Made by a program: the position numbers and the translations under genes. Shown in pieces: positions 12,870-51,021 of a DNA stretch of 64,000 bases. The notes under the pieces were generated by a model. The model was not told the DNA's origin and searched no databases. It was given only the letters and a program-made list of their open reading frames with translations. Location of the stretch: assembly GCA_011524855.1 (NCBI GenBank), contig WTJK01000017.1:13054-77053 (forward strand), written 5' to 3'. Within the stretch, counting starts at the first letter, position 1, and every line of letters begins with the position of its first letter. Origin of the DNA: Methanobacteriota archaeon. GTDB lineage: Archaea; Thermoplasmatota; Poseidoniia; Poseidoniales; Poseidoniaceae.

Positions 12870-13499
12870 TCAACCGTTCAGCCGATCACGCACAGCGTCC
12901 ATGACCAGTCGTCCATCGGTTCGAACTTGTTCTTTGACGCTGTCCAATTCACTGCGGATCGTTTCACCCATCTCGGCCGGCAAACCGTTGAGATTGATTT
13001 CAACGTTGAACAGCGCCCCCTTGGCTGCGGCACTGGCGAGTAATCCCGCTACACCGACATCCGAGACGGCGTTGGCGTTGCCCTTGGCTGCGAGTTCAGG
13101 GAGCATGGCGAGGAGTTCTGCGGCCTTGCATGCGGTCTCGTACGGTACTTCCGCTGCGTGCAAGGTGGCAGCGCGAATGGCCGTACGGCGTGCATTCACT
13201 TCCTCATCGTCGCCTTTCGGAAGTTTGAACGACGCCATCACCTCGTCAAAAGCATCGCTGTCTTGCTGAGCCAAGTCACCCGAGGCACCCATCATCGGGA
13301 TGGCTGAACGTTGAACACGCTCCGCCACGGGCCATCCGTCGGACCACTTCTCGTTGCTCAGGGTGAGGTCGGCCACCATGATGCTCAAGGAAGCGGCTTG
13401 CCCCAAAGCCACGGCAGCAGCGGTGCCTCCTCCCGGGGTGGGGGAGGATGATGCGAGGGCTGCCATGAACTCACGTTGTGTCATTTCCATCCAGTTCAT
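12870..13499 (-). CDS. Formimidoyltetrahydrofolate cyclodeaminase (stand-alone FTCD C-terminal domain).
   Basis: 'MTQREFMAALASSSPTPGGGTAAAVALGQAASL' is a typical cyclodeaminase N-terminus. Its ATG overlaps the stop of the upstream formiminotransferase gene (ATGA). Confidence 0.7.
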   Translation of the reverse strand: MNWMEMTQREFMAALASSSPTPGGGTAAAVALGQAASLSIMVADLTLSNEKWSDGWPVAERVQRSAIPMMGASGDLAQQDSDAFDEVMASFKLPKGDDEEVNARRTAIRAATLHAAEVPYETACKAAELLAMLPELAAKGNANAVSDVGVAGLLASAAAKGALFNVEINLNGLPAEMGETIRSELDSVKEQVRTDGRLVMDAVRDRLNG

Positions 13500-14539
13500 G
13501 CACTCAGCCCCCTGATCGCCCACTCAATGATGCTTTCGTCGGGCTCAAATCGGTGGTGTTCACGCAGTCCCAACCCGTTGATGGCAGCGTTGACCAATTC
13601 GTGCTCGTCCGATGCTTCCGGTAGGTAAAACCGACCGGCTTCCAGCATGGCGTTGAGCGGCACAAGTCCAACGATTTCACTGCCCGGGGTCACGGTGCCA
13701 TGGTCGCCAACGACGCTTTTCACCGTCTCATAGGCGAGGTGCAGTGGGCATGCATCCACATCCAAGAGGTTCATCGATACCTGGGAGATTCCCAATTCTT
13801 CCAACGTCACGCCCATGCCTTGCACGCTTGGGAGCAGACCTTGTGTTCGCATACGCTGGCCCGTGGGTGATTTGAGAAGACGTCCGCTCGAACGAACCAG
13901 CGAACCCACTTTTTTCGCCACGACGGCATCAGGTTCATCCACGTTCACGTTGTAGGCAACGAGAATGGAGCGGGCCCCCACCGTGATGCCTCCGGACCGT
14001 GCGACCGATTCGGACCACACCGAGGCCCCTTCGTCGGGCAACATCGTCGTTGCTTCGTGGCGACGGTTGCTTCCGTCCAATCGCGAGGCCAATTCCTCGT
14101 ATTCTCCTTTGCGAAGGTTCGACAACAACGTGCGTTCCGGGTGGCTCGCTGCGGCTCCGTAGAGAAACAAGGGCACCGCTGCAGCTGCTGCCACATCCTG
14201 CACCGTGCGGCGAGCAAGGTCGGCGCATGCCTCCATGGTGATTCCTTGAAGCGGCACGAAAGGGCAAACATCGACCGCACCCAACCGGGGATGCTCGCCT
14301 TGGTGCGTTCGCATGTCAATTTCATCGATCGCAGCAAGAATCAGTGCGACCGCGCCTTGCTGGACAGGCTGGGGCTCACCTGCGAGCGTGATGACGGTTC
14401 GATGGTAATCCCGATCGGGTTCGACTCCCAACACGTGGCAGCCTGCCACGGCACGTGCGGCTGCGACGATTCGCTCAATTTTGTCATCGTCCCTGCCTTC
14501 GGAAATGTTGGGGACGCACTCGACCAAGGCGTTGCTCAT
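13496..14539 (-). CDS. Glutamate formimidoyltransferase (stand-alone FTCD N-terminal domain).
   Basis: N-terminus 'MSNALVECVPNISEGRD' matches the formiminotransferase signature 'LVECVPNFSEGR'. Confidence 0.8.
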   Translation of the reverse strand: MSNALVECVPNISEGRDDDKIERIVAAARAVAGCHVLGVEPDRDYHRTVITLAGEPQPVQQGAVALILAAIDEIDMRTHQGEHPRLGAVDVCPFVPLQGITMEACADLARRTVQDVAAAAAVPLFLYGAAASHPERTLLSNLRKGEYEELASRLDGSNRRHEATTMLPDEGASVWSESVARSGGITVGARSILVAYNVNVDEPDAVVAKKVGSLVRSSGRLLKSPTGQRMRTQGLLPSVQGMGVTLEELGISQVSMNLLDVDACPLHLAYETVKSVVGDHGTVTPGSEIVGLVPLNAMLEAGRFYLPEASDEHELVNAAINGLGLREHHRFEPDESIIEWAIRGLSA

Positions 14540-23263: not shown

Positions 23264-25303
23264 ATGAGCATGGCACATGATTGGGGGCCGCTTCGACAAT
23301 CCATTCTCGAAGGCATCCCGGAACATCTTCCACCATCAACGCCCCTGGACTCGAGCGTTGACCATGCCCCCGCCCGAAAACAAGTCCTCTCGAACGAGGA
23401 GAAACACTTGGCCGTGTGCAATGCGCTGCGATACATTCCACCTGCTCACCACGAGGTTTTGTACCCCGAATTTATGGATGAATTGGAGACCTTCGGTCGG
23501 ATTTTGATGCGACGCTATCGCCCCACCGAACATCCGATGCGAGCCCACCCGATCAACGCATATCCAGCCAAGTCGCCCCAAGCCGCTGCCATCATGCTCA
23601 TGATTCAAAACAACCTTGACCCCGATGTTGCTCAATTTCCACATGAATTGATCACGTACGGCGGAAACGGTTCCGTGTTCCAAAACTGGGCCCAATATCG
23701 ATTGGCCATGAAGTACCTCAGCGAGATGGATGAGGACCAAACGTTGGTCATGTACTCGGGCCACCCCATGGGTTTGTTTCCTTCCTCGCCTGAAGCACCG
23801 AGGGTGGTGGTGACCAACGGGATGGTGATTCCCAACCACTCCTCGCCTACGGATTATGAGCGCATGAATGCCCTTGGCGTCACACAGTACGGCCAAATGA
23901 CGGCGGGGTCGTACATGTACATTGGCCCGCAGGGAATTGTGCACGGGACCACCATCACGCTGTTGAACGCAGCGCGAATGCACCTCGGCCTCGACGATGA
24001 CGCAACGTTGGCCGGCGTCACCTTCGTCACCAGCGGGTTGGGCGGCATGTCCGGTGCCCAAGCCAAAGCTGCGACCATCGCTGGGGCGGCGTGCATCATT
24101 GCCGAAGCCAACGCCCATGCGGCACACAAGCGACATGAACAGGGATGGTTGACCGATGTTACGGACGACGTGGACCAAGCCATCGATCTCATGACCGAGG
24201 CAGCGAGCACGGGTCAAACGATTTCAGTTGGCTACATCGGCAACATCGTTCGTCTTTGGGAACGGCTGGTTGAGCGGAACGTGAAGGTGGACCTGGGCAG
24301 CGACCAGACCAGTTTGCACAATCCTTTCCAGGGAGGCTATTTCCCGGTTGACCGCTCCTTTGAGGCCTCGACCGTGATGATGTCGTCCGACCCCGAAGCC
24401 TTTGAGGATGCTGTCCGCGCAACGCTCCGTCGGCACGCAGATGCCATCAACACCATGGTCAGCCGCGGGATGTACTTTTGGGATTACGGCAATGCCTTTC
24501 TCTTGGAGGCCTCTCGAGCGGGCGCCGATGTCCTTTCAGCCGATGGTTCGTTCCGATACCCGAGCTACGTGGAGGACATCATGGGGCCGTTGTGCTTTGA
24601 CTACGGTTTCGGGCCATACCGATGGATTTGTACCAGCGGGCTGGCATCGGATTTAGAAGAAACCGACCGCATTGCGGAATCGGTGTTGGTCGCCATGCTC
24701 GAGGAAGCGCCTCCCGACATTCGTCGCCAAATTCAAGACAACCTCATTTGGATCCGGCAAGCAGGGAGCAACTCCCTGGTCGTCGGGAGCCAAGCTCGGA
24801 TCCTCTACGCCGATGACGAGGGTCGTCGACGTATCGCACAAGCCATGAATCAAGCCGTTCGAGACGGCCGGTTGGACGGGCCGGTGGTCCTTGGTCGCGA
24901 CCACCATGACGTGTCCGGGACCGACAGCCCCTACCGTGAAACAGCGAACATTCGAGACGGGTCGATGTTTACGGCGGACATGGCCGTGCAGAACGTGATT
25001 GGCGACGCCTTCCGAGGTGCAACATGGGTCAGCATCCACAACGGCGGCGGTGTTGGTTGGGGTGAAGTGATGAACGGCGGGTTTGGATTGTTGCTGGACG
25101 GCTCTACCGAGGCCGATCGTAAACTCGACAGCATGCTTCATTGGGATGTGAACAACGGTGTTGCACGCCGAGCTTGGGCACGAAACCCCGGTGCGGAGTT
25201 TGCGATTCGCCGAGCCATGGAGGCCAACGACCGATTGACCGTCACCATGCCCCATCACGTCGAGGAACAGGTGTTTCGGCAACACGGAGGGCGTCTGTCT
25301 TGA
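23264..25303 (+). CDS. hutU: Urocanate hydratase (urocanase).
   Basis: Long archaeal/eukaryal-type urocanase with conserved 'GGMSGAQ' and 'HNGGGVGWGEV' regions. Adjacent to hutH. Confidence 0.9.
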   Translation: MSMAHDWGPLRQSILEGIPEHLPPSTPLDSSVDHAPARKQVLSNEEKHLAVCNALRYIPPAHHEVLYPEFMDELETFGRILMRRYRPTEHPMRAHPINAYPAKSPQAAAIMLMIQNNLDPDVAQFPHELITYGGNGSVFQNWAQYRLAMKYLSEMDEDQTLVMYSGHPMGLFPSSPEAPRVVVTNGMVIPNHSSPTDYERMNALGVTQYGQMTAGSYMYIGPQGIVHGTTITLLNAARMHLGLDDDATLAGVTFVTSGLGGMSGAQAKAATIAGAACIIAEANAHAAHKRHEQGWLTDVTDDVDQAIDLMTEAASTGQTISVGYIGNIVRLWERLVERNVKVDLGSDQTSLHNPFQGGYFPVDRSFEASTVMMSSDPEAFEDAVRATLRRHADAINTMVSRGMYFWDYGNAFLLEASRAGADVLSADGSFRYPSYVEDIMGPLCFDYGFGPYRWICTSGLASDLEETDRIAESVLVAMLEEAPPDIRRQIQDNLIWIRQAGSNSLVVGSQARILYADDEGRRRIAQAMNQAVRDGRLDGPVVLGRDHHDVSGTDSPYRETANIRDGSMFTADMAVQNVIGDAFRGATWVSIHNGGGVGWGEVMNGGFGLLLDGSTEADRKLDSMLHWDVNNGVARRAWARNPGAEFAIRRAMEANDRLTVTMPHHVEEQVFRQHGGRLS

Positions 25304-26853
25304 CCAAATCAACGGTTTACGTTGACGGCGTCACACTGACGGTGACAGATGTGATGATGGTGGCTCATCGTGGTATGCAGGTGGAGGTTTCTGAAGATGC
25401 TTGGCCCAAGATTCATGCTGCCCGCGCCGTGGTCGACCGGATCGTCGCGAACAACGAAACCGTTTACGGCATCAACACCGGCTTCGGTGCATTGGTGCAT
25501 CAGCGCATCTCTCCGGACGATCTCGCTCAACTCCAAGTCAACCTGATCCGTTCTCATGCCACTGCCATCGGTCCAACCATGTCGGTGCCTGAGGTTCGAG
25601 CCATGATGTTGATTCGCTTGAATTCTCTTTGCAAAGGCCACTCTGGCGTGCACCCCGATGCCATTCAGCAACTGGTCTTGTTTCTCAACGAGGGCCTCCA
25701 CCCCGAAGTTCCACGGATCGGCAGCCTGGGTGCGAGCGGCGACCTTGCACCGTTGTCTCACCTTGCACTTGCGTTAATCGGAGAGGGACGGCTGGTGACA
25801 GAGGGCGGTGAAATTCGACCCACCAAAGAGGTGCTGTATGAACGAGGTGTGCTTCCACTCCAGCTCACGGCAAAAGACGGGTTGTCGCTCATCAATGGAA
25901 CCTCCCAAATGTCCGCCTACATGGCGACATCCGTTGCTCGACTGTCCGAATTGCTCGTGCTTGCTGACGTGGTGCTGGCGATGTCCATGGAAGCCCGTCA
26001 GTGCAGTTTAACACCGTTTCGAGAAGAAGTCCACAACGTTCGCCCACATACCGGACAGCGGATCGTTGCGCAGCGCGTTCGCACGATGCTTGATGGCTCC
26101 CCCATCATGGCAGGCCATGCTGATTGCGATCGCGTCCAAGACCCTTACTCCTTCCGATGCGCGCCCCAGGTCCATGGTGCGGTTTACGAGTCGTTCCTTG
26201 ACGTGCAACGAACCATTGACGTTGAGTTGAACAGCACCACGGACAACCCGCTCATTTTCCCGACCCCCGACCAGCCGGGCTCTCACGAAGTCGTGAGTCA
26301 GGGCAACTTCCATGGTGAAGTGCTCGCCATCCGAGCGGACCAGATGGCCTTGGGATTGTTTGAATTGGCCTCGATCAGCGAACGTCGGATGGACCAAATG
26401 TTGGACCGGTCCCGCAGCGGTCTCCCCGCGTTTTTGGCAAAAAATTCTGGGCTCGAATCCGGATTGATGATTGTGCAATACGTCGCAGGAGCATCGCTTG
26501 CTGAACTGCGCGGTCACGCCTCGCCAAGGTCAGCGTTCTCGACGTCGACATCCGCCGGCCAAGAAGACCATGTCAGTTTGGGGGCAACGGCCAATCACAA
26601 CCTTCTGGTGGCCACGGAGCGTTTGGCGGAGGTTCTCGCATGCGAAGCCCTCATCGCCTCAGAAGCTCTGACACACCAGCCCGTCCAACCGGTGGGCCAT
26701 GTCGCAGGTATGGTTGACTTGGTGCGAGCGATTGCTCCGCCTCTCAATGGGGATCGGAGTACCTCAGACGAACTCATCTCCATCGCCCAAGCCATGACGG
26801 GCGGGGGCTGGCTGGCTCGCCTTGAAGCTGAACACGGTCGCCTACCTCGATGA
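25300..26853 (+). CDS. hutH: Histidine ammonia-lyase.
   Basis: 'GSLGASGDLAPLSHLA' is the Ala-Ser-Gly MIO-forming motif. A TTG start overlaps the hutU stop (TTGA). The ORF-track start at 25141 is probably too far upstream. Confidence 0.9.
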   Translation: MTKSTVYVDGVTLTVTDVMMVAHRGMQVEVSEDAWPKIHAARAVVDRIVANNETVYGINTGFGALVHQRISPDDLAQLQVNLIRSHATAIGPTMSVPEVRAMMLIRLNSLCKGHSGVHPDAIQQLVLFLNEGLHPEVPRIGSLGASGDLAPLSHLALALIGEGRLVTEGGEIRPTKEVLYERGVLPLQLTAKDGLSLINGTSQMSAYMATSVARLSELLVLADVVLAMSMEARQCSLTPFREEVHNVRPHTGQRIVAQRVRTMLDGSPIMAGHADCDRVQDPYSFRCAPQVHGAVYESFLDVQRTIDVELNSTTDNPLIFPTPDQPGSHEVVSQGNFHGEVLAIRADQMALGLFELASISERRMDQMLDRSRSGLPAFLAKNSGLESGLMIVQYVAGASLAELRGHASPRSAFSTSTSAGQEDHVSLGATANHNLLVATERLAEVLACEALIASEALTHQPVQPVGHVAGMVDLVRAIAPPLNGDRSTSDELISIAQAMTGGGWLARLEAEHGRLPR

Positions 26854-27729
26854 GGTCCTGCTCAAGATGCTGGCGGATGTTTCATCAACATCAACGAGGT
26901 TGAACAAGCGATACGACCAGCGTTCCAATTCCGCAACGGTGAACACGTCCGTTGAGGCGTGCAGGTGCAACAGGGCTTCGGTTGCTGTACGGATGCGCTC
27001 TTCCACCGCCTGGTAAGTGGCGTACGCTTCGTCGTTGTTGCTCATGCTCAGGGCCGGTTCAAGTTCGGTGAGATCGAACCCCATACGACGCCACTGAAGC
27101 ATACGTTTTGACAGCAGACCTCGGTGAAACCCCAATTTCGGTAAGGAAACGAGTTGGGCCAGCACAGGTTGGTGAACTTCATGCTCGCTGATCGACTGAG
27201 GTTGTCCTTCGACCGGTGCGATCTTGTTGCTCGTGGATGGTTTTGGTGAGCTGGGTTCGTTGACCGTTGAGGCGATGAGGGGGGACATACGCATCCAAAC
27301 ATTGGATGGAAAGGTCAGCGGGTCGAGCACGAGATGGATTGAAAGCCGGTGGAGTTGGCTTAATTCCGTGAGCCATGCCATCAATGCAAACACGGGAACC
27401 GGCCCTTCTTCATCAAACACCGCATCAAGGCCTTCGAGGATGACCACGCCTTCGTTGTGCTCTGGCGCCCATGAACCCAGGGAAGCCCGTATCGCATCCG
27501 TTGACGGGAAGACCGAATCGTTGGTTTCGAGGTGCGTCAGCCACCGAAACGTGGTCATGTGCGGGCTCAAATGGCGAAGCAGCCTTCGCGTGGGTGAACG
27601 GCTGAGAATGAGGCGGGGTCGACCTTCTTCCACGGACAATTCGTCGTAGATGACCATCAGTTTGTCAAAGCGAGTGATGTGAAGGGCGTTCACCGTGCCC
27701 GCCGTCACCACCATGGTTGACGATGGCAA
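26842..27729 (-). CDS. DUF835-like domain protein (N-terminal DUF835-like domain plus an uncharacterised C-terminal domain).
   Basis: 'FRWLTHLE...GVVILEGLDAVFDEEGPVPVFALMAWLTEL...LVLDP' resembles the DUF835 pattern. It is divergent from the EF-hand protein gene. Confidence 0.35.
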   Translation of the reverse strand: MPSSTMVVTAGTVNALHITRFDKLMVIYDELSVEEGRPRLILSRSPTRRLLRHLSPHMTTFRWLTHLETNDSVFPSTDAIRASLGSWAPEHNEGVVILEGLDAVFDEEGPVPVFALMAWLTELSQLHRLSIHLVLDPLTFPSNVWMRMSPLIASTVNEPSSPKPSTSNKIAPVEGQPQSISEHEVHQPVLAQLVSLPKLGFHRGLLSKRMLQWRRMGFDLTELEPALSMSNNDEAYATYQAVEERIRTATEALLHLHASTDVFTVAELERWSYRLFNLVDVDETSASILSRTSSR

Positions 27730-27814
27730 GTCCTGTCTAAAGAAATACCTCCGACAGTGCCACGCCCGTCAAGGATTATATCCGAAGTGGTCCTCCTCGC
27801 CTTTGGGTGCTCTG

Positions 27815-29611
27815 ATGGCAGACAAGGATGACAACAAAGTCGGGATGGCCGAATGCGGTTCATGCCGCGCCGTGATTCCCATCGATTCCAAAGCGTGCCC
27901 CGAATGCAACACCTCCTTCCAAGGCGTTTCTGACGAAGCCCTTGGCGAGTGCGGTGCGTGCCAGAGCCTGGTCCCCCTCGATTCCACCCGATGCCCAGAA
28001 TGCAGTGTTCTGTTTGTGGCGGACGATGTCGTGGACGTACTGCGCCAGTGGGTTTCCAACACGGGCATCGACTTGCGAAAACTCTTCGACAAGTTCGACG
28101 AAAACGGTGACGGGATGATCGACTCTTCGGAGTTGCGCGAAGGACTGCTCAGCCTCAACCTCGCCGACCTCCCGCCCAGTCAAGTGGAACGCTTGGTGAA
28201 GGAAATTGATGAAGACGACAACGGCGTGATCGACCTGGATGAGTTCATTGACATCCTCTCATCGGGCGAATCGGATGCGTCGGACGATGCAACCACAGAA
28301 GACGTGGGTGAAGAGGAAGAACCGTCCGCTGACGAAGAGCACGACAACGCTGATGCGGTCAGCGAGGATGCGGATGAACCATCCGATGCTGATGCCGAGG
28401 AGGACGAAGGCCAAGACGATGGTGAGGCGGATGACACTGGCGATGAGGTTGCTGAACCCGAGGACGAGCCAGCGGAGGAAGTTGAGGCTGTTGACGATGC
28501 CGTCGATGAAGGCGACATGTCCCACAAAGAGGTCGTTTCGCTCAAGAATCCACTCCTTGATTTGGCGAACATGATGGATGAGATGGGCGTCTCTGCTCAA
28601 CGCGTGTTCAATGACCTTGACCGCGATGGCAACGGCATTATTTCCAAAGACGAGCTGATGAAACTCATCGAGTCCGACTACGGTGAAGACATGGACATGG
28701 AAACCGTTGAGATGCTGATGGAGCAGCTCGATGACGACGGCGATGGCTCCGTTGACCTAGCAGAATTTTACGCCTCGCTCGAGGAGCTTGACGACCACGA
28801 GGACGCCGTTGAAGAGACCGTGGAGGAGGACTACTTCCCCACGCCCATGCAAAAGCGGATGATGTCCAAAGCTTGGAACGACGCAGTCTGGCCCATCCTC
28901 CACACGGGTTTTGCCTTGATGTTGATCCTCGTGTTGGTCAACGCGCTTGTTGGTCCGGTTGACGGAACAGGTGGGGCTGTTGTGTACGAGCCGATGGACA
29001 ACGGCCTCGTTCCGAGCGGTTTGAACCCCGGTGATGTCTTCCCTTGTGACGAAAAATACCAACAGGGAGGTTGTTCGAATTCCTTGACCCTGTTCAGTGG
29101 AGAAAACGGAGCTTCATCCATGCCAAAGGGGTTCTATCTCGATGGCATCATCTTCATGATTCTGAGTTTGATTGGTCTGGGTGGTTCGTTGTTCATGCAC
29201 CTGGTCCGCGTTCCTGCTTGGCGCGCACGTGCGAGGGCCATGCGTGAGTTCGAGGCGGACAAAGCAGATGCCGCAAAAGAAGCAACCGACGAGTCCGTCG
29301 ACAATGACGACACGGACGAGCACGAAGATTCAGACGATGAGGAGAGAGATGACCTTGTTGATGAAGAAGATGTTGGTGTCGAAGAAGAAGTTGATGCCGA
29401 CGAGGACATGGGAGAAGACGACGACGAGGGTGAGACGGACGCCGAAGACGATGAAATCGATGTGGGCTCCCACATCGGCCTGGTCTTTGATGACGAGGAA
29501 GTCTTCGGGACCATTGTTGAATTCGATGACGAAGAAGGAACCGTGACCATCGAAGAGGACGGCAGCGGGGATTTGGTCACCGGTTATCAGGACGATATGT
29601 TTCTTGAGTGA
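27815..29611 (+). CDS. Very acidic membrane protein with an N-terminal double zinc ribbon and four EF-hand loops.
   Basis: Zinc ribbons 'CGSCRAV..CPEC' and 'CGACQSL..CPEC'. EF loops 'DENGDGMIDSSEL', 'DEDDNGVIDLDEF', 'DRDGNGIISKDEL' and 'DDDGDGSVDLAEF'. Two TM helices and long D/E tracts. Confidence 0.6.
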   Translation: MADKDDNKVGMAECGSCRAVIPIDSKACPECNTSFQGVSDEALGECGACQSLVPLDSTRCPECSVLFVADDVVDVLRQWVSNTGIDLRKLFDKFDENGDGMIDSSELREGLLSLNLADLPPSQVERLVKEIDEDDNGVIDLDEFIDILSSGESDASDDATTEDVGEEEEPSADEEHDNADAVSEDADEPSDADAEEDEGQDDGEADDTGDEVAEPEDEPAEEVEAVDDAVDEGDMSHKEVVSLKNPLLDLANMMDEMGVSAQRVFNDLDRDGNGIISKDELMKLIESDYGEDMDMETVEMLMEQLDDDGDGSVDLAEFYASLEELDDHEDAVEETVEEDYFPTPMQKRMMSKAWNDAVWPILHTGFALMLILVLVNALVGPVDGTGGAVVYEPMDNGLVPSGLNPGDVFPCDEKYQQGGCSNSLTLFSGENGASSMPKGFYLDGIIFMILSLIGLGGSLFMHLVRVPAWRARARAMREFEADKADAAKEATDESVDNDDTDEHEDSDDEERDDLVDEEDVGVEEEVDADEDMGEDDDEGETDAEDDEIDVGSHIGLVFDDEEVFGTIVEFDDEEGTVTIEEDGSGDLVTGYQDDMFLE

Positions 29612-29991
29612 ACATGACCGAAGGTGAACGCGACCCCCTGGACGCTTTTCACGGCGTAGCATCGTGTACGGTGTGCGGTTGTTTTGCCAAAAAGGGAACA
29701 TTGCGTTGTCCGGAATGTGGGACCTTCCACTCCGGCGCAGTCATGGTTGAGCGACCTGCTCCTTCACCGGAAGAACGCGTGGCTGCGGAACCCTCGGCAC
29801 CCGATCCAAGCATGTATTCCCTCGGCCCGGCATCGACGATCGCCGAGGAGGCGTTTGAGGAATCCGAGGACGTGCGAGCGTGGACTGGCGGCAGCACGGA
29901 TTTCACGTTTGAGGACGATGATGAGCCCGTGGCAACATCGACACCCGCCTTGTCTGCAGCGCCCGAAGTTGTCGCAAGCAATGAAGATTAA
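29608..29991 (+). CDS. Small zinc-ribbon protein with an acidic C-terminal tail.
   Basis: 'CTVCGCFAKKGTLRCPECGTF' plus an acidic tail 'EEAFEESEDVRAWTGGSTDFTFEDDDEP'. Overlaps the upstream stop. A likely ATG start lies at 29614. Confidence 0.45.
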   Translation: MNMTEGERDPLDAFHGVASCTVCGCFAKKGTLRCPECGTFHSGAVMVERPAPSPEERVAAEPSAPDPSMYSLGPASTIAEEAFEESEDVRAWTGGSTDFTFEDDDEPVATSTPALSAAPEVVASNED

Positions 29992-30075: not shown

Positions 30076-30152
30076 TGGTGGGCTCGGAGAGAATCGAACT
30101 CTCGATCTTTGCCATGTCAAGGCAACGTCATAAACCCCTAGACCACGAGCCC
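30076..30152 (-). tRNA. tRNA-Val (anticodon GAC) with genomically encoded 3' CCA.
   Basis: Reverse complement is GGGCUCGUGGUCUAGGGGUUUAUGACGUUGCCUUGACAUGGCAAAGAUCGAGAGUUCGAUUCUCUCCGAGCCCACCA. It has a 7-bp acceptor stem, GG in the D-loop, anticodon loop UUGACAU and T-loop UUCGAUU. Confidence 0.85.
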
Positions 30153-30210: not shown

Positions 30211-30363
30211 TCAACGTATGATCTTTGATATCTTCCCTGTGCATGGGTTGTTGGAACACAAGCCGGCATAGCGCGTACGACCGTTGGCCATGGAAACTTC
30301 TTTGCCATCGCGAATAGGCCCGTAGGTTTTGCATTTCATACAGTACCCTTCGATGGCTGACAT
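30211..30363 (-). CDS. Small Cys-rich protein, DUF5679-like zinc-ribbon.
   Basis: 'YCMKCKTYGPIRDGKEVSMANGRTRYAGLCSNNPCTGKISKII' matches the CxKCK...G.C..C pattern of DUF5679. Confidence 0.45.
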   Translation of the reverse strand: MSAIEGYCMKCKTYGPIRDGKEVSMANGRTRYAGLCSNNPCTGKISKIIR

Positions 30364-30570
30364 GTTCCTCAACCCCTGTCGCTTCGGTGGACGATTTGAA
30401 TCCTTTGTCAAGACGCCGAAAAGTTTGGTGTTTTTGGCCTCTGAGGGTATACGTGGAGGAGAGATTTTTGGAATCTTGGGAGGTCGGGATTCGAAGCTTG
30501 TTGAAAAACAGCGTACTGCGCTTCATTCGCAGTTCAAAGCAAGAACCGAGCGGATGCCAAGTTCTCTGAA

Positions 30571-31006: not shown

Positions 31007-32290
31007 TCAGCGCACGTGTTGAATCATTTCACCCTCCAACATGGTGGACCACACAGGACTGTGGCTGGGCTGGAGGGACCACGATTCCCAGTGCGGGCTT
31101 GCCAGCACATTGAGGTTCGCAACAGCACCTTCTCGAATCACACCGTGTTCCAATCCACTCGGGTGGGGCGAGGTCGCCGCTGCTCTGCACGTCACCGCCT
31201 TGAGCGCTTCCATCGGATGCACGCCTGCCCGCTGCACCATGAGCGACCCCATAAACGGTAAACTCAGGGTTTGGCAGTTTGGATTGAAATCGGTGGCCAG
31301 CGTGAAATGCAGTTCGTTGTCAACGACCTCGCTCATGTTTGGAAAAGCATCGCCCATGGCATAAGGCGTCCCAGGGAGGTAACCGGTGTTCACGCCCGCT
31401 TCGGTCATGGCCATGCGCGTTTCGAGGGGGGTGTGATATGCATGATCGGCGGTCTGAACCCTGTATTCTACCGCAAGGTCTCCGCCACCACCGTTCGTAA
31501 ATTCATCAACATGCAAACGCAAGTCGAGCCCTCCCTTCTTTCCTGCTGTGAGCAAGTCCGAGGTTTGTTCGACGGAGAACCATCCTGGTTCACAAAACAC
31601 ATCCATGGACCGTGCAATACCTTGGTCCAACACCGCAGGGAGTTGGTCGCTCAACAGTGCATCCGTGTATTCACTGATGGTAGCACCCGGGGGCGCATCA
31701 TGCGCCCCCATCCACGTGATGTCCAACGATGGCAGCCCTGACTCGCGATTGAGCCGATCCATGGTGTTGAGAAGATCGAGCTCGGAAGGCGTGGACAAGC
31801 CGTAACCACTCTTGGCTTCCATGTGCGTGGTGCCACTTCGAAGTGCCGTTTTCATCCGATCCACCCCTCGGAAAAACAAACTTTGGGGCGTTGACGCTCG
31901 TGTAGCAGCGACCGTCGAAGCGATACCGCCACCAAGTTGAGCGATGTCAACGTAAGATTTCCCTTCGTGGCGCCATCTGACCTCTTGCGAACGGTCTCCT
32001 GCCCAGAGCAAGTGGGTGTGGGTGTCAATGAAGCCAGGGACGACCGCACGTCCACCCGCATCGAACATGATGTGCTCCTCAACTGCTTCCATGCCGTATT
32101 CATCGACCACCTCGCTTGAAGGTGCGACTTGTTCAATAACGCCGCGATTTACAACAATTGCCATGTCTTCGGCAATTGCCTCTTCATCATTGGATGCATC
32201 GGCACCGTCCAAGTGCACCAAGACGCCGATGTTGTGCACGACGGTGGCCACGATGGTCAACGGGTGAAGAGGGTTGAAGAACAATGGCAT
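31007..32290 (-). CDS. hutI: Imidazolonepropionase.
   Basis: Amidohydrolase with 'VVPGFIDTHTHLLWAG' and a HutI-like metal-ligand distribution. HutU, HutH and FtcD are in the same window. Confidence 0.85.
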   Translation of the reverse strand: MPLFFNPLHPLTIVATVVHNIGVLVHLDGADASNDEEAIAEDMAIVVNRGVIEQVAPSSEVVDEYGMEAVEEHIMFDAGGRAVVPGFIDTHTHLLWAGDRSQEVRWRHEGKSYVDIAQLGGGIASTVAATRASTPQSLFFRGVDRMKTALRSGTTHMEAKSGYGLSTPSELDLLNTMDRLNRESGLPSLDITWMGAHDAPPGATISEYTDALLSDQLPAVLDQGIARSMDVFCEPGWFSVEQTSDLLTAGKKGGLDLRLHVDEFTNGGGGDLAVEYRVQTADHAYHTPLETRMAMTEAGVNTGYLPGTPYAMGDAFPNMSEVVDNELHFTLATDFNPNCQTLSLPFMGSLMVQRAGVHPMEALKAVTCRAAATSPHPSGLEHGVIREGAVANLNVLASPHWESWSLQPSHSPVWSTMLEGEMIQHVR

Positions 32291-47448: not shown

Positions 47449-50400
47449 ATGGCTCACCGGAGATGGCCGGCCCTCGCTTTGATGGCCCTGTTGTGTTTCT
47501 CCATCCAACTCCAGCCGGTGTTGACAGCGTCGCAACCTGCGCGACATCATGCACCCTCCAACCCCACCGGCGTGGACATTGAGGTCACGGGTGTCTCGAT
47601 TGCGTACACCAACAACGCAGACGTCAATTCGTACCGTATGTTTTCCTCCAACCACCCCATCGCCGGGTTCAACCGGCCTGCGAATCTGTATGTGATCGAT
47701 GGCATGGTGGACACCGGTTCAACGTTAACCGTCACCGTGGAAAACATCGGAACGGCCAACAGCGGCGTGGTGGACGTGACCGTGACCCTTCTTCATGACG
47801 AATATGCCTTTTTTGAATTCGTCAACACCACCGTTCAGATGAACGGGCTCTCCCCTGCTGCCATTGATACGGTCGAAATCCCCATCACACCCGGCTATGC
47901 AGGGAACCATTCCATGCTCATCACGGCCACACCAACGGTGAACGACGATGACCCGAGCAACAACGTCTTCAATCGCCATTTCACCGTGGGTTACCGTTAC
48001 TACAACTGCGACACAACGGCCAATCACACGTTTGGCCCGGGTTGGTCCCTCAGCACCGACACCTCGATTTCCAAAGGGTCCAGCTGCCATGTTGGAAACG
48101 GCCAGACGGGGACCTACACGAACAACATGATGACGGCCCTGGTGACGCCGGTCATGGACATGTCGGATGCCGTGCAGTCGCCGTTACGAACAAACGGATT
48201 GTCCTTTTACTACACGGGGAGCAGCGCCGCCAACGATGTGTTGAAGATTTACGGTGCAGATACCATGGGCGCATGGGTGGAAATCGCATCACTGACGGGA
48301 ACAGTGGATCAAAATTTCTTTGACGGAGCCAACTGGCAAACGTTCAGTTTCAACAACAAAGGCGCCGCTTCCCCTTTGATTCCTATCCAAACAGCGCTGT
48401 TCCACAGCGCATCGCAATTCAAATTCGAGTTCACCTCAGACGCCAGTGGGACGGACATGGGCTTTTACATCGATGAAATCGTGATGGTGTACGACCAAAA
48501 GGTCCGCATTCATGAGTTTGATGTGAGCGCGCAAGGTGTCGGCACGACCGGCGCGTTGCCCGGTGAGTGGGGCAGCGTGACGGTCGAAATCGTCAACGAC
48601 GGCAACATCACCGAGACCTTTGTGCCCTCTGTCAGCGGCATACCGGAGGGCTGGGGTGTGTACTTTGCTCGGCCCTCTGGCACGAGTTTCAACCCTGCCT
48701 CCGGATTAACGGTGACACCCGGAACCCCCTCGGCATTCAAACTGATGCTCAATCCCGACGAGAACGCTTCAACCGGATTCCAACAGATGCAAATCGATGT
48801 TCGCTCGGTGCAATATTCGAGCGTAAACACCTCGCTTCCTGTTCAATTCCTGGTCAAGGCTGACAGGATCCCGGTGATGACAGCCCCTGTCCTCCGTCCC
48901 AGCTGTCCGCCCACACAGAGCTGTTCGTTCAGCATTGAAATCAACAACGCTGGTGAAGCGACCGACGTGTTCGACCTCTCCTTGAACACCTCAACCTTGC
49001 CATCGGATTGGTCCGTGAACCTTGACTGGATGCAACGAACATCGGTTCAAGTGCGACCGCAACAGCCCGAGCAGGTCGGTTTGGTGATGACGGTTCCTGC
49101 CAGTGCAGCACCGGACACCGTCGTTCAATTCTCAATGACCATGGCGGCTCAGAACGATTCACGCCGAACACTGACCACAGTGTTCGACGTGTCTGCAAGC
49201 ATGATCAGCAATGCAAGTCTCCTCATGACGAGCCACCAGACCACCGACACCGTGGAGGTTCTCCCCGGCGAAACAACCTTGCTGTCCTACACCGTCACCA
49301 ACCATGCCCCACGGCAGGATATTTTTGACGTGCGAATACAAGCCGAAAACCTTGGGCAGTGGACCGTCGAACAACCATCACGCCCCGCAATGGTGTTGAA
49401 CAGCGGGTCAACGTCCACTTTCAACGTCCGCATCACGGCCCCCGAGACAGCACAGGCTGGCGACCGTGGCCCCGTCATCACCCCCATCATCGAGTCGCAA
49501 CGGAGTTTCATGACCGTGGAGGGTGAGGGCTTCAGCGGTTTGCGAGCAGGGAGTGTTCACGACGTCGCCCTCGATGCCGTTGAACTCCCGCAGCGCATCC
49601 TACCGGGTGGGTCCAACCTGCTGATGTTCAACGTGAGCAATCAGGGTAACGGGCCGGCCAGCACGCATCTGGTGGCGGAAGATTTGCCCGCAGGCTGGAG
49701 TTACACCATGCTGCTCAACGACGAACCGGTGAACGGCAGCATCGACCTCTCTGCCATCTACGGCATGCAACCCTACACGGTGGTTCAGGTGCAAGTGCAT
49801 GTTCCGTCTTCCGAGGATGCAGGTGCCCGAACCACCATGCGATGGTCCTTGGATTTGGAATCCCAAACACAGGACGTTGACCTGTCAAACAACGTCATTG
49901 AATGGACGACAGTGACAGCCGCTGTGAAAATTGTTGAACTGGACGATGCGGTAGGGTCAACCCGTGCGGCGGTGGGCGGTACTGCCTTTGCAGAAGCGGT
50001 GATCAGGAACATCGGGAATGCACCTGAATCGACGTTGGCTGTCATCGCCACCGTGTCAGCATCACCACCCAACCCCGATTTGGTGGCCTTGTTCTCTGTG
50101 AACGGTGCCGACAAATCGCTGGCTGAGCAGGCGCCGATAAACGTGGCAGCAGGTGGGAACACGACCTTCCGCGTTGACCTCTTGATTCCTGAAGGGATGG
50201 AATTAAACACGCGTATTGTGGTCAGGTTTGAAGTGTTGAACGCCGTTGATGAAGAAGGGTTACCCGTCCCCATGATGGCGGAGCAACTTGTGGTTGTTGA
50301 TCAACGCCGTTCAATCTCCCTCACCGCAATGCCTGCCAACGCCGAAGCGACGACGTGGAATGGTGCGGCATTGGTGTGGGTGAACTTGACCAGCACCTCG

Positions 50401-51021
50401 ACGCAGACAGAAAACCTCACCCTCGCCGCTGTTGGCCCCAGCGCCTGGCAAATCAGTTGCCAACAGCGCATCCTCAACACCTCAGGCGAAGCCCTGGTCA
50501 TCGCACCCGGCCACCTTAACCCTCAAGCAGAACGTCGTTTGTGTGAAATCGTCAACCTGGACGCAACGTGGCAAGGGGAAGTTGCCTTTACCATCAGCGA
50601 TGACCAGCAGACGGTGATGGCTGATGCGTCGGTCGAATTGAGTTTCAGGGAACCTGAAGAATCCCAATCGTTCGCCTCGGGCGCCATGCTGGCGGGTGGA
50701 GGCGGTCTCGTCATCACCATCGCCGTTGGGCTCTTGTTCCTGCGTCGAAGAGCACCTGCAACATCGACGGTGTTGGCGAACGAACCGAAGGTTGCGCCTT
50801 CGTTAGCGTCGGCTGTTCTGGCAGGCCCCCCTGCGACTTCCGGAGGGACCGACACGATGAGCGGAGAGCCGGAGCAACACGGCCCTGAACCACGCGATGT
50901 TGAGGTGCAGAAGGCGATGAACGAGGAGGGCCCACCGCTCCCGGCCGAAGGCCTGCCCCCGGGCTGGACGATGGAGCAGTGGAGGTACTATGGCCAGCAA
51001 TACCTTGATGGGACCTTGTAA
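47449..51021 (+). CDS. Large (1190 aa) cell-surface glycoprotein (S-layer or adhesin-like) with tandem beta-rich Ig/CARDB-like domains, a C-terminal TM anchor and a cytoplasmic tail.
   Basis: Signal peptide 'ALALMALLCFSIQLQPVLTA'. More than 20 N-x-S/T sequons. Recurring 'VTV...N.G' domain periodicity. TM 'LVITIAVGLLFLRRR' near the C-terminus. Confidence 0.6.
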   Translation: MAHRRWPALALMALLCFSIQLQPVLTASQPARHHAPSNPTGVDIEVTGVSIAYTNNADVNSYRMFSSNHPIAGFNRPANLYVIDGMVDTGSTLTVTVENIGTANSGVVDVTVTLLHDEYAFFEFVNTTVQMNGLSPAAIDTVEIPITPGYAGNHSMLITATPTVNDDDPSNNVFNRHFTVGYRYYNCDTTANHTFGPGWSLSTDTSISKGSSCHVGNGQTGTYTNNMMTALVTPVMDMSDAVQSPLRTNGLSFYYTGSSAANDVLKIYGADTMGAWVEIASLTGTVDQNFFDGANWQTFSFNNKGAASPLIPIQTALFHSASQFKFEFTSDASGTDMGFYIDEIVMVYDQKVRIHEFDVSAQGVGTTGALPGEWGSVTVEIVNDGNITETFVPSVSGIPEGWGVYFARPSGTSFNPASGLTVTPGTPSAFKLMLNPDENASTGFQQMQIDVRSVQYSSVNTSLPVQFLVKADRIPVMTAPVLRPSCPPTQSCSFSIEINNAGEATDVFDLSLNTSTLPSDWSVNLDWMQRTSVQVRPQQPEQVGLVMTVPASAAPDTVVQFSMTMAAQNDSRRTLTTVFDVSASMISNASLLMTSHQTTDTVEVLPGETTLLSYTVTNHAPRQDIFDVRIQAENLGQWTVEQPSRPAMVLNSGSTSTFNVRITAPETAQAGDRGPVITPIIESQRSFMTVEGEGFSGLRAGSVHDVALDAVELPQRILPGGSNLLMFNVSNQGNGPASTHLVAEDLPAGWSYTMLLNDEPVNGSIDLSAIYGMQPYTVVQVQVHVPSSEDAGARTTMRWSLDLESQTQDVDLSNNVIEWTTVTAAVKIVELDDAVGSTRAAVGGTAFAEAVIRNIGNAPESTLAVIATVSASPPNPDLVALFSVNGADKSLAEQAPINVAAGGNTTFRVDLLIPEGMELNTRIVVRFEVLNAVDEEGLPVPMMAEQLVVVDQRRSISLTAMPANAEATTWNGAALVWVNLTSTSTQTENLTLAAVGPSAWQISCQQRILNTSGEALVIAPGHLNPQAERRLCEIVNLDATWQGEVAFTISDDQQTVMADASVELSFREPEESQSFASGAMLAGGGGLVITIAVGLLFLRRRAPATSTVLANEPKVAPSLASAVLAGPPATSGGTDTMSGEPEQHGPEPRDVEVQKAMNEEGPPLPAEGLPPGWTMEQWRYYGQQYLDGTL

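Follow-up and report, generated by a model that had tools for sequence, protein, structure and literature searches.

An acidic EF-hand and double-zinc-ribbon membrane protein conserved in Poseidoniales, a candidate cytoplasmic Ca2+ sensor or scaffold

Domains and conservation of the 598-aa protein

We analyzed a 64,000-nucleotide (nt) stretch of contig WTJK01000017.1 from an archaeon of the Poseidoniaceae (hereafter, the window). Our subjects are a gene for a highly acidic membrane protein of 598 amino acids (aa) that combines EF-hands with a double zinc ribbon, the gene for a small acidic zinc-ribbon protein that follows it, and a divergently transcribed gene for a DUF835-like protein. All three are present among the open reading frames (ORFs) of the window at the coordinates given in an initial annotation made from the sequence alone, and public assemblies hold identical or 99% identical 598-aa gene calls. 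The features of the locus are collected in Table 1.

Table 1. Features of the locus in window coordinates, with the mean identity of orthologs to the window protein for each region of the 598-aa protein (pLDDT, predicted local distance difference test; D+E, aspartate plus glutamate; TM, transmembrane helix)
Feature	Position	Strand	Details	Mean identity
Acidic EF-hand/double-zinc-ribbon membrane protein	27815..29611	+	598 aa; stop codon 29609-29611	
Double zinc ribbon	27845..28018	+	aa 11-68; four CxxC pairs C14/17, C28/31, C46/49, C60/63	76%
EF-hand pair 1	28028..28270	+	aa 72-152; loops aa 95-106, 132-143; Pfam EF-hand matches	67%
Acidic disordered linker 1	28271..28543	+	aa 153-243; pLDDT 30-37 (AlphaFold); in orthologs 52-274 aa, median D+E fraction 0.45	16%
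EF-hand pair 2	28550..28795	+	aa 246-327; loops aa 269-280, 306-317	44%
Membrane hairpin	28886..29209	+	TM1 ~aa 358-380, ~62-aa conserved loop (predicted outside), TM2 ~aa 443-465	55%
Acidic disordered linker 2	29285..29455	+	aa 491-547; pLDDT 33-54 (AlphaFold); in orthologs 34-108 aa, median D+E fraction 0.68	19%
C-terminal small beta domain	29456..29608	+	aa 548-598; IDxGSHIGLxFDDEEVFGxIVEFDDEEGTVTIEEDGxGDLVTGYQxDMFxE	78% (highest of all regions)
Small acidic zinc-ribbon protein	29608..29991	+	127 aa from GTG 29608 or 125 aa from ATG 29614	
Ribbon of the small zinc-ribbon protein	29665-29730	+	aa 20-41; CxxCGC..CxECGTFH	
DUF835-like gene	26842..27714	-	290 aa from ATG 27714; stop 26842-26844; alternative TTG 27729 gives 295 aa (ORF 26842-27729)	
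N-terminal domain, inactivated KaiC/RecA-like alpha/beta fold (iKaiC)	27271..27714	-	aa 1-148 of the DUF835-like protein	
C-terminal helical domain	26845..27153	-	aa 188-290 of the DUF835-like protein; invariant basic motif LPxxGF..LxKRxLQWxRMGxD..E.A	
Divergent promoter region	27715..27814	.	100 bp between DUF835-like ATG 27714 and EF-hand ATG	
A/T box ATTATAT	27775-27781		33 nt upstream of the EF-hand gene ATG	
A/T box CTAAAGAAATA	27737-27747		for the divergent DUF835-like gene	
hutU + hutH	23264-26853		directly upstream of the three genes	
hutI	31007-32290		downstream of the three genes, other strand	
tRNA-Val(GAC)	30076-30152	-		

The EF-hands of the 598-aa protein are recognized by several Pfam models. 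Specifically, EF-hand_7 matches two pairs (E=3.5e-23, 82.2 bits against a cut-off of 30), and EF-hand_6 (71.5 bits, cut-off 25) and EF-hand_1 (69 bits, cut-off 25.4) each match four stretches. A canonical EF loop has 12 residues, with oxygen ligands at positions 1, 3, 5, and 12 (D, D/N/S, D/N/S, and E), usually a glycine at position 6, and a hydrophobic residue at position 8. The four loops of the window protein (DENGDGMIDSSE, DEDDNGVIDLDE, DRDGNGIISKDE, and DDDGDGSVDLAE) are canonical at all six of these positions. Both pairs align with the lobes of calmodulin by sequence (E=2e-14). In the AlphaFold model, helices flank each loop (aa 72-152 and 246-327, pLDDT ~66-85), and the pairs match centrin, calmodulin, and troponin C (Foldseek, E from 3e-5).

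The remaining parts of the protein are arranged around these pairs. The double zinc ribbon scores just below the cut-off of the DZR model (PF12773) when the whole protein is scanned (25.8 against 27.3 bits) and above it when the N-terminus is scanned in isolation (30.9 bits). The two TM helices, placed by hydropathy on the orthologs at ~aa 358-380 and 443-465, correspond to AlphaFold helices at 352-378 and 438-492, and the loop between them contains the motif CDEKYQxGGCxNSLT with C411 and C420. Two stretches, aa 152-243 and 492-546, are predicted to be disordered in the AlphaFold model, and the C-terminal domain is modeled as four strands (aa 553-591, pLDDT 79-86). Thus, the inventory of the initial annotation (two zinc ribbons, four EF loops in two pairs, two TM helices, and acidic tracts) was borne out, except that its acidic C-terminal tail of ~120 aa is in fact an acidic disordered linker of ~55 aa followed by a conserved, folded beta domain of ~50 aa.

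D+E make up 29% of the 598-aa protein, compared with ~12-13% for the other ORFs of the window, so that acidity is a property of this protein and not of the proteome. We also considered tandem repeats in the DNA as the origin of the acidic tracts and rejected them, since none underlie these tracts. The GC skew of the window peaks between 28001 and 30000 (up to +0.13, the window maximum), where the AT skew reaches +0.075, in agreement with the series of GAN (Asp/Glu) codons that the acidic genes contain.

To place the protein among known families, we scanned its parts separately as well as together. The isolated beta domain has no sequence relative in the Pfam scan or the PDB profile search (best match RimP SH3, E=0.27, not significant), and the Pfam scan of the isolated TM hairpin returned no significant match. 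The full-length family has no Pfam or NCBIfam model and no description in the literature that we found, and no annotated family was found to join a DZR with EF-hand pairs, in keeping with the initial view that this domain combination is undescribed. The 598-aa family is an uncharacterized, lineage-specific new architecture built from known domains. In addition, the locus contributes three undescribed conserved parts: the outside loop of the hairpin, the C-terminal beta domain, and the basic helical domain of the DUF835-like protein. A reading of the three genes as an anti-phage defense system was rejected, as the proteins gave only insignificant matches to PADLOC models (E>=0.056).

We next consider how widely and how strictly this architecture is kept. 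More than 1,500 relatives sharing this architecture came up in a protein search, all from marine metagenomes or metagenome-assembled genomes. In a scan of one genome per species, relatives occurred in at least 151 species genomes, and 80 loci were kept for analysis. Of these, 78 are labeled Poseidoniales, Poseidonia, Poseidoniaceae, or an unresolved archaeal taxon. The other two lie on bacterially binned contigs, CAXQWT010000101.1 (L059, Salipiger bermudensis) and CALDQY010000076.1 (L070, Rhodobiaceae), which carry the complete archaeal arrangement of hutH, DUF835-like, EF-hand, and zinc-ribbon genes and are probably mis-binned Poseidoniales. As far as these searches show, the 598-aa family is restricted to Marine Group II archaea (Poseidoniales) and is carried by every locus examined.

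Residue conservation was counted in 62 complete species-level orthologs. All eight zinc-ribbon cysteines are invariant in 62/62, as are both cysteines of the inter-helix loop. All four EF loops have D at position 1, E at position 12, D or N at positions 3 and 5, and I, V, or L at position 8 in every ortholog, so that the positions on which the initial annotation had staked its EF-hand assignment (1, 3, 5, and 12) are canonical throughout. The ordered parts of the protein are 44-78% identical across the order, compared with 16-19% for the linkers, which still keep their acidic composition.

The number of EF loops per ortholog ranges from four to seven. Many orthologs are 690-770 aa long and carry a third EF-hand pair within the first acidic linker, giving 6-7 loops (L031, L043-L055, L059, L062, L064, L069, L071, L072, L077, and L080), and three (L034, L035, and L054) have extra EF-loop matches beyond the second TM helix. 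These variable counts imply that the number of EF-hands varies within the family while the remaining architecture is fixed. We also looked for relatives that join the TM hairpin and beta domain to other N-termini and rejected this category, because those shorter profile-search hits that we examined proved to be calls of the same gene that either started internally or were fragments. In two pilon-polished long-read assemblies (L081 and L082), the urocanase and EF-hand genes are split into several short calls with identical synteny, apparently owing to frameshift errors. Such splitting probably accounts for many of the 240-380-aa "homologs" in the profile search with the hairpin and beta domain.

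Partner genes and their neighborhood

The small zinc-ribbon gene follows the EF-hand gene closely. Its GTG start overlaps the upstream stop by 4 nt, and the alternative ATG lies 2 nt past that stop. Across loci, the distance from the EF-hand stop to the zinc-ribbon gene is between -11 and +7 nt in 66 of 67 cases. Because of this spacing, there is good evidence that the two genes form one operon, and they are probably translationally coupled; we regard the link between them as well supported. The ribbon of the small protein is weakly similar to each ribbon of the 598-aa protein (pairwise E=2e-4) and is followed by a disordered acidic tail with the conserved short motifs ERxAP, DPSxYSLGP, and WxGGSTDF.

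On the other side of the EF-hand gene lies the DUF835-like gene, whose 3' end overlaps that of hutH by 12 nt in convergent orientation. Since its homologs are 283-291 aa long and public data hold an identical 290-aa gene call, we favor ATG 27714 as its start. With this start, the shared promoter region is 100 bp, rather than the 85 bp given initially. The window protein matches DUF835 (PF05763) over aa 17-136 of the 290-aa form with E=3.8e-6 and 27.2 bits, under the cut-off of 33.1. Among 22 aligned orthologs, all 22 match at E<=0.01 (best 9.3e-14), and NCBI labels some orthologs "DUF835 domain-containing protein".

The AlphaFold model of the DUF835-like protein (pLDDT 77 overall) is well defined in the N-terminal domain (~85-95) and in helices 198-288 (81-93). 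In Foldseek searches, the N-terminal domain matches DnaB, Sso2452, RadA, KaiC, and FlaH at E ~1e-3 to 1e-2 and ~10% identity, with a probability of 1.00 and a target-normalized template-modeling score (TM-score) of up to 0.49, and FlaH is also found by PDB profile search (E=0.006). A Walker A motif ([AG]xxxxGK[ST]-like) is absent from 22/22 orthologs. The N-terminal domain is thus an inactivated KaiC/RecA fold without Walker A. DUF835 has been described as an inactivated KaiC (iKaiC) that archaeal response regulators use as an output domain (PMC5847659), and the DUF835-like protein fits this description because it combines a KaiC/RecA/FlaH fold with the loss of Walker A. The protein shares the fold and the missing Walker A with DUF835 (PF05763), and its orthologs match the profile although the window protein itself scores under the cut-off; unlike the response-regulator outputs, it has no receiver, PAS, or membrane segment and carries its own C-terminal helical domain.

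This C-terminal domain has no Pfam match (best UBA domain, E=0.11, not significant). An exhaustive HMMER search of 1.84 billion representatives returned 59 matching clusters. The full-length matches (~275-336 aa) carry the domain C-terminally, and the shorter ones look like fragments. Accordingly, the domain was found in no other architecture among these representatives, only in the ~290-aa family and its fragments.

Both A/T boxes of the intergenic region (Table 1) are positionally conserved in dozens of orthologous intergenic regions, as ..CATCAA(T/G)xATTATAT.. and CTAAGGAATTA, and this pattern suggests two archaeal TATA boxes, one per gene. In most loci, GGTG stands 5-10 nt upstream of the EF-hand ATG, so that the EF-hand transcript is probably not leaderless but begins with a short leader that carries a ribosome-binding site. 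A promoter and terminator scan of the window was uninformative, as it applied a sigma-70 model to an archaeal host.

The DUF835-like gene is adjacent and divergent to the EF-hand gene in 80/80 genome loci. The same holds for the EF-hand gene in 66/66 metagenome loci that were recovered via the DUF835-like protein and have enough flank. The gene neighborhood, to whose conservation the initial annotation had tied its proposal, is therefore kept in all of these loci. The three genes are flanked by histidine-utilization (hut) genes, with hutU and hutH upstream and tRNA-Val(GAC), hutI, and kae1 downstream. Farther away, ORFs at 12870-14539 (- strand) resemble formiminotransferase and cyclodeaminase by their N-terminal sequences. 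Beside the tRNA gene lies a small Cys-rich ORF (30211-30411, - strand) that matches DUF5679 with E=2e-4 and 21.7 bits, under the cut-off of 27; related contigs (L083 and L084) have a 53-aa gene call at the equivalent position.

Predicted topology, Ca2+ binding, and competing explanations

The 598-aa protein has no N-terminal hydrophobic segment. Lysine plus arginine account for 4 of 21 residues in the N-terminal flank of the hairpin, 2 of 64 in its loop, and 6 of 27 in its C-terminal flank. The Cys4 ribbons are located on the N-terminal arm, and the sole other conserved cysteine pair is in the inter-helix loop. Since some orthologs carry extra EF-loop matches after TM2, i.e., EF-loop matches on both arms, the two arms would lie in one compartment. 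Altogether, these features indicate an N-in/C-in topology, in which the EF-hands, both zinc ribbons, and the beta domain are predicted to be cytoplasmic and ~60 conserved residues to be outside. The outside loop is probably disulfide-bonded.

The distribution of charges, the cysteine pattern, and the positions of the domains all place the EF-hands on the cytoplasmic side, which favors a Ca2+ sensor or scaffold within the cell over a Ca2+ module at its surface. Specifically, we propose, with a probability of about 0.5, that this Poseidoniales protein binds Ca2+ in the manner of calmodulin, is anchored in the membrane, faces the cytoplasm, and acts as a sensor or scaffold with Ca2+ switching.

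In the proposed mechanism, the protein would be held in the membrane by its two-helix hairpin, with both termini intracellular. On the N-terminal arm, the double zinc ribbon would be followed by the two EF pairs, with a long acidic disordered spacer between the pairs; on the C-terminal arm, a second acidic spacer would lead to the beta domain, which is small and strongly conserved. Cytoplasmic Ca2+ would be bound by the four canonical EF-hands (some orthologs have up to seven loop matches), and upon binding the EF pairs would change conformation like the lobes of calmodulin. This switch may then alter which partners the zinc ribbons and the beta domain retain at the membrane. As the first candidate for such a partner, the coupled small zinc-ribbon protein offers conserved proline-containing and aromatic motifs in its disordered tail. 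The DUF835-like iKaiC protein is a second, weaker candidate, in that its basic C-terminal motif could complement the acidic surfaces of the EF-hand protein. Finally, the conserved outside loop could anchor the 598-aa protein or receive an external cue. All of these protein-protein contacts are conjectural.

A bolder extension of the sensor reading joins the three proteins into an archaeal relay for intracellular Ca2+ as a second messenger. In such a relay, a membrane-tethered "split calmodulin" would, with the zinc-ribbon protein as adaptor, recruit or release the KaiC-like output upon Ca2+ transients, perhaps triggered via the conserved outside loop. We consider this extension doubtful.

Several points weigh against the sensor or scaffold reading. 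The topology is deduced by sequence rules only, and Ca2+ binding, its affinity, and the switching are likewise predictions. The whole-protein AlphaFold model is weak (mean pLDDT 57.5, predicted template-modeling score 0.23), and because of this, contacts between domains are not readable from it. The very acidic composition would suit low-affinity Ca2+ buffering equally well. Finally, hutU, hutH, hutI, kae1, and the genes for FKBP and methylmalonyl-CoA mutase keep the same order around the three genes in every related locus, the most divergent included, and no locus with broken synteny was found among the genome and metagenome loci examined. Because the flanking genes keep their order too, adjacency cannot separate functional linkage from frozen gene order.

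This last point is the basis for the alternative that survives best, namely, that there is no three-gene module. The EF-hand and zinc-ribbon genes would then form one operon, and the DUF835-like gene would be a frozen neighbor with an unrelated role in a syntenic, streamlined genome. That the retained order extends well beyond the three genes, and that the DUF835-like gene has a promoter box of its own, fit this explanation, to which we give close to an even chance. It has to contend with the observation that the two families seem limited to the same lineage and always occur together (in the 80 genome and 66 metagenome loci above), with the confinement of the C-terminal domain to the ~290-aa family, and with the known role of DUF835 as a signaling output domain (PMC5847659). 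We therefore regard the link of the DUF835-like gene to the other two as plausible but unproven. The initial annotation had proposed a Ca2+-sensing or Ca2+-buffering membrane module of all three genes; of this proposal, a Ca2+-binding membrane module is plausible, whereas membership of the DUF835-like gene lacks specific support from synteny and the suggested link to the cell surface is not plausible (see below).

Another explanation is that the protein serves as a Ca2+ buffer or store without relaying a signal. In a calsequestrin-like manner, it would mainly sequester Ca2+ on the cytoplasmic side of the membrane, with the EF-hands and polyacidic tracts as low-affinity, high-capacity sites, and would protect a small cell living in seawater with 10 mM Ca2+. 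The overall D+E content, the linkers that keep their composition (0.45 and 0.68) despite sequence divergence, and the rise to 6-7 EF loops in some clades are all as a buffer would have them. However, buffering needs no membrane anchor, and it leaves unexplained why the double zinc ribbon, the outside loop and its two cysteines, the beta domain (78% identity), and the coupled zinc-ribbon partner are so strictly conserved. We thus consider a pure buffer unlikely.

Alternatively, the protein could be a Ca2+-independent, polyanionic membrane tether, whose acidic tracts and zinc ribbons hold basic partners such as nucleoid proteins, ribosomal proteins, or cytoskeletal filaments and whose EF-hands are merely structural. 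Both the long disordered acidic stretches and the zinc ribbons, which belong to a generic interaction type, would serve this purpose, and the invariant basic motif KRxLQWxRMG of the neighboring DUF835-like protein suits electrostatic binding. Against this, the Ca2+-ligand positions of the four loops are kept in 62 species while their surroundings diverge to 44-67% identity, which argues for selection on metal binding itself and makes a Ca2+-independent tether quite improbable.

Least likely, with only a slim chance, is an extracytoplasmic, Ca2+-stabilized envelope protein with both arms outside and EF-hands that are structural sites permanently loaded in seawater, perhaps serving to organize surface glycoproteins or the S-layer. 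In its favor, many EF-hand proteins of bacteria reside in the periplasm or are secreted (e.g., EfhP, now predicted to be periplasmic; PMC9132961), and the window encodes large surface proteins with CARDB and Ig-like domains. Against it, the protein lacks any signal peptide or N-terminal hydrophobic segment by which a highly acidic arm of 350 aa could be exported, zinc ribbons of the Cys4 type typically occur in the reducing cytoplasm, and the positive-inside rule puts both hairpin flanks inside. In addition, the sole conserved non-zinc cysteine pair is located between the two TM helices, where one would expect it if the loop there is exposed outside, and no conserved adjacency to surface-protein genes was seen among the loci examined. 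The "large surface glycoproteins" to which the initial annotation had linked the EF-hand protein probably refer to a 1190-aa protein with CARDB, NPCBM-associated, and Ig-like domains (47449-51021, + strand). With the EF-hands predicted to be cytoplasmic, we found nothing that ties the EF-hand module to this protein or to other surface glycoproteins of the window.

Relation to known systems and significance

Like calmodulin, centrin, and troponin C, the 598-aa protein has two pairs of canonical 12-residue EF loops in helix-loop-helix units. Unlike calmodulin, a soluble protein of ~150 aa with a short central helix, it is a membrane protein whose lobes are separated by an acidic disordered linker of ~90 aa, and it differs from all three in its zinc ribbons, TM hairpin, beta domain, and archaeal host.

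Among prokaryotic EF-hand proteins, which also include CabD, calsymin, and calerythrin, EfhP (PA4107) of Pseudomonas aeruginosa has canonical EF-hands and a proposed role in relaying Ca2+ signals. Its dissociation constant (Kd) for Ca2+ is 13.7 uM, and it changes conformation (PMC9132961). EfhP has two EF-hands and a signal peptide and is predicted to be periplasmic (PMC9132961), whereas the 598-aa protein has four EF-hands and no signal peptide and is predicted to be cytoplasmic; zinc ribbons, TM hairpin, and acidic linkers are absent from EfhP. Pfam and NCBIfam scans detected no sequence relationship between the 598-aa protein and EfhP-type proteins beyond the EF-hand domain. At its N-terminus, the 598-aa protein resembles the DZR membrane proteins of prokaryotes, with two tandem CxxC..CxxC ribbons; the DZR is a generic module.

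STIM1 offers a functional analogy only, as a membrane-anchored protein whose EF-hands could recruit partners to a membrane depending on whether Ca2+ is bound. It differs in sensing luminal Ca2+ and in its EF-SAM unit, single TM helix, and coiled-coil effector arm. The EF-hand_STIM1 model matches the 598-aa protein with E=0.023, far under its cut-off, so that homology is limited to the generic EF-hand. The 598-aa protein is thus neither calmodulin proper, nor an EfhP-type periplasmic sensor, nor a STIM homolog.

Gene modules specific to Poseidoniales subgroups have been noted in passing to include families with calcium-binding domains (PMC9258230). The initial statement that EF-hand proteins are rare in archaea is therefore less striking for this order, for which such families had already been mentioned. 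Beyond that remark, searches of the literature on DUF835, on EF-hands in Poseidoniales, and on calmodulin in Marine Group II returned no description of the family.

No member of Marine Group II, which ranks among the most abundant groups of planktonic archaea, has been brought into culture, and its cell biology is therefore approached mainly through conserved lineage-specific proteins. Ca2+ signaling via calmodulin-like EF-hand sensors is established in eukaryotes and emerging in bacteria, and the literature searched contained no defined archaeal example of calmodulin-like Ca2+ signaling. With four strictly conserved EF-hands, the same locus in every Poseidoniales genome examined, and a coupled partner gene, the 598-aa protein provides a concrete, expressible target for testing cytoplasmic Ca2+ signaling in archaea. 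If it is merely a buffer or a tether, it would be a routine lineage-specific family. If the relay of the three proteins proved true, it would be the first defined calmodulin-type signaling module in Archaea, fixed across an order of globally abundant planktonic archaea.

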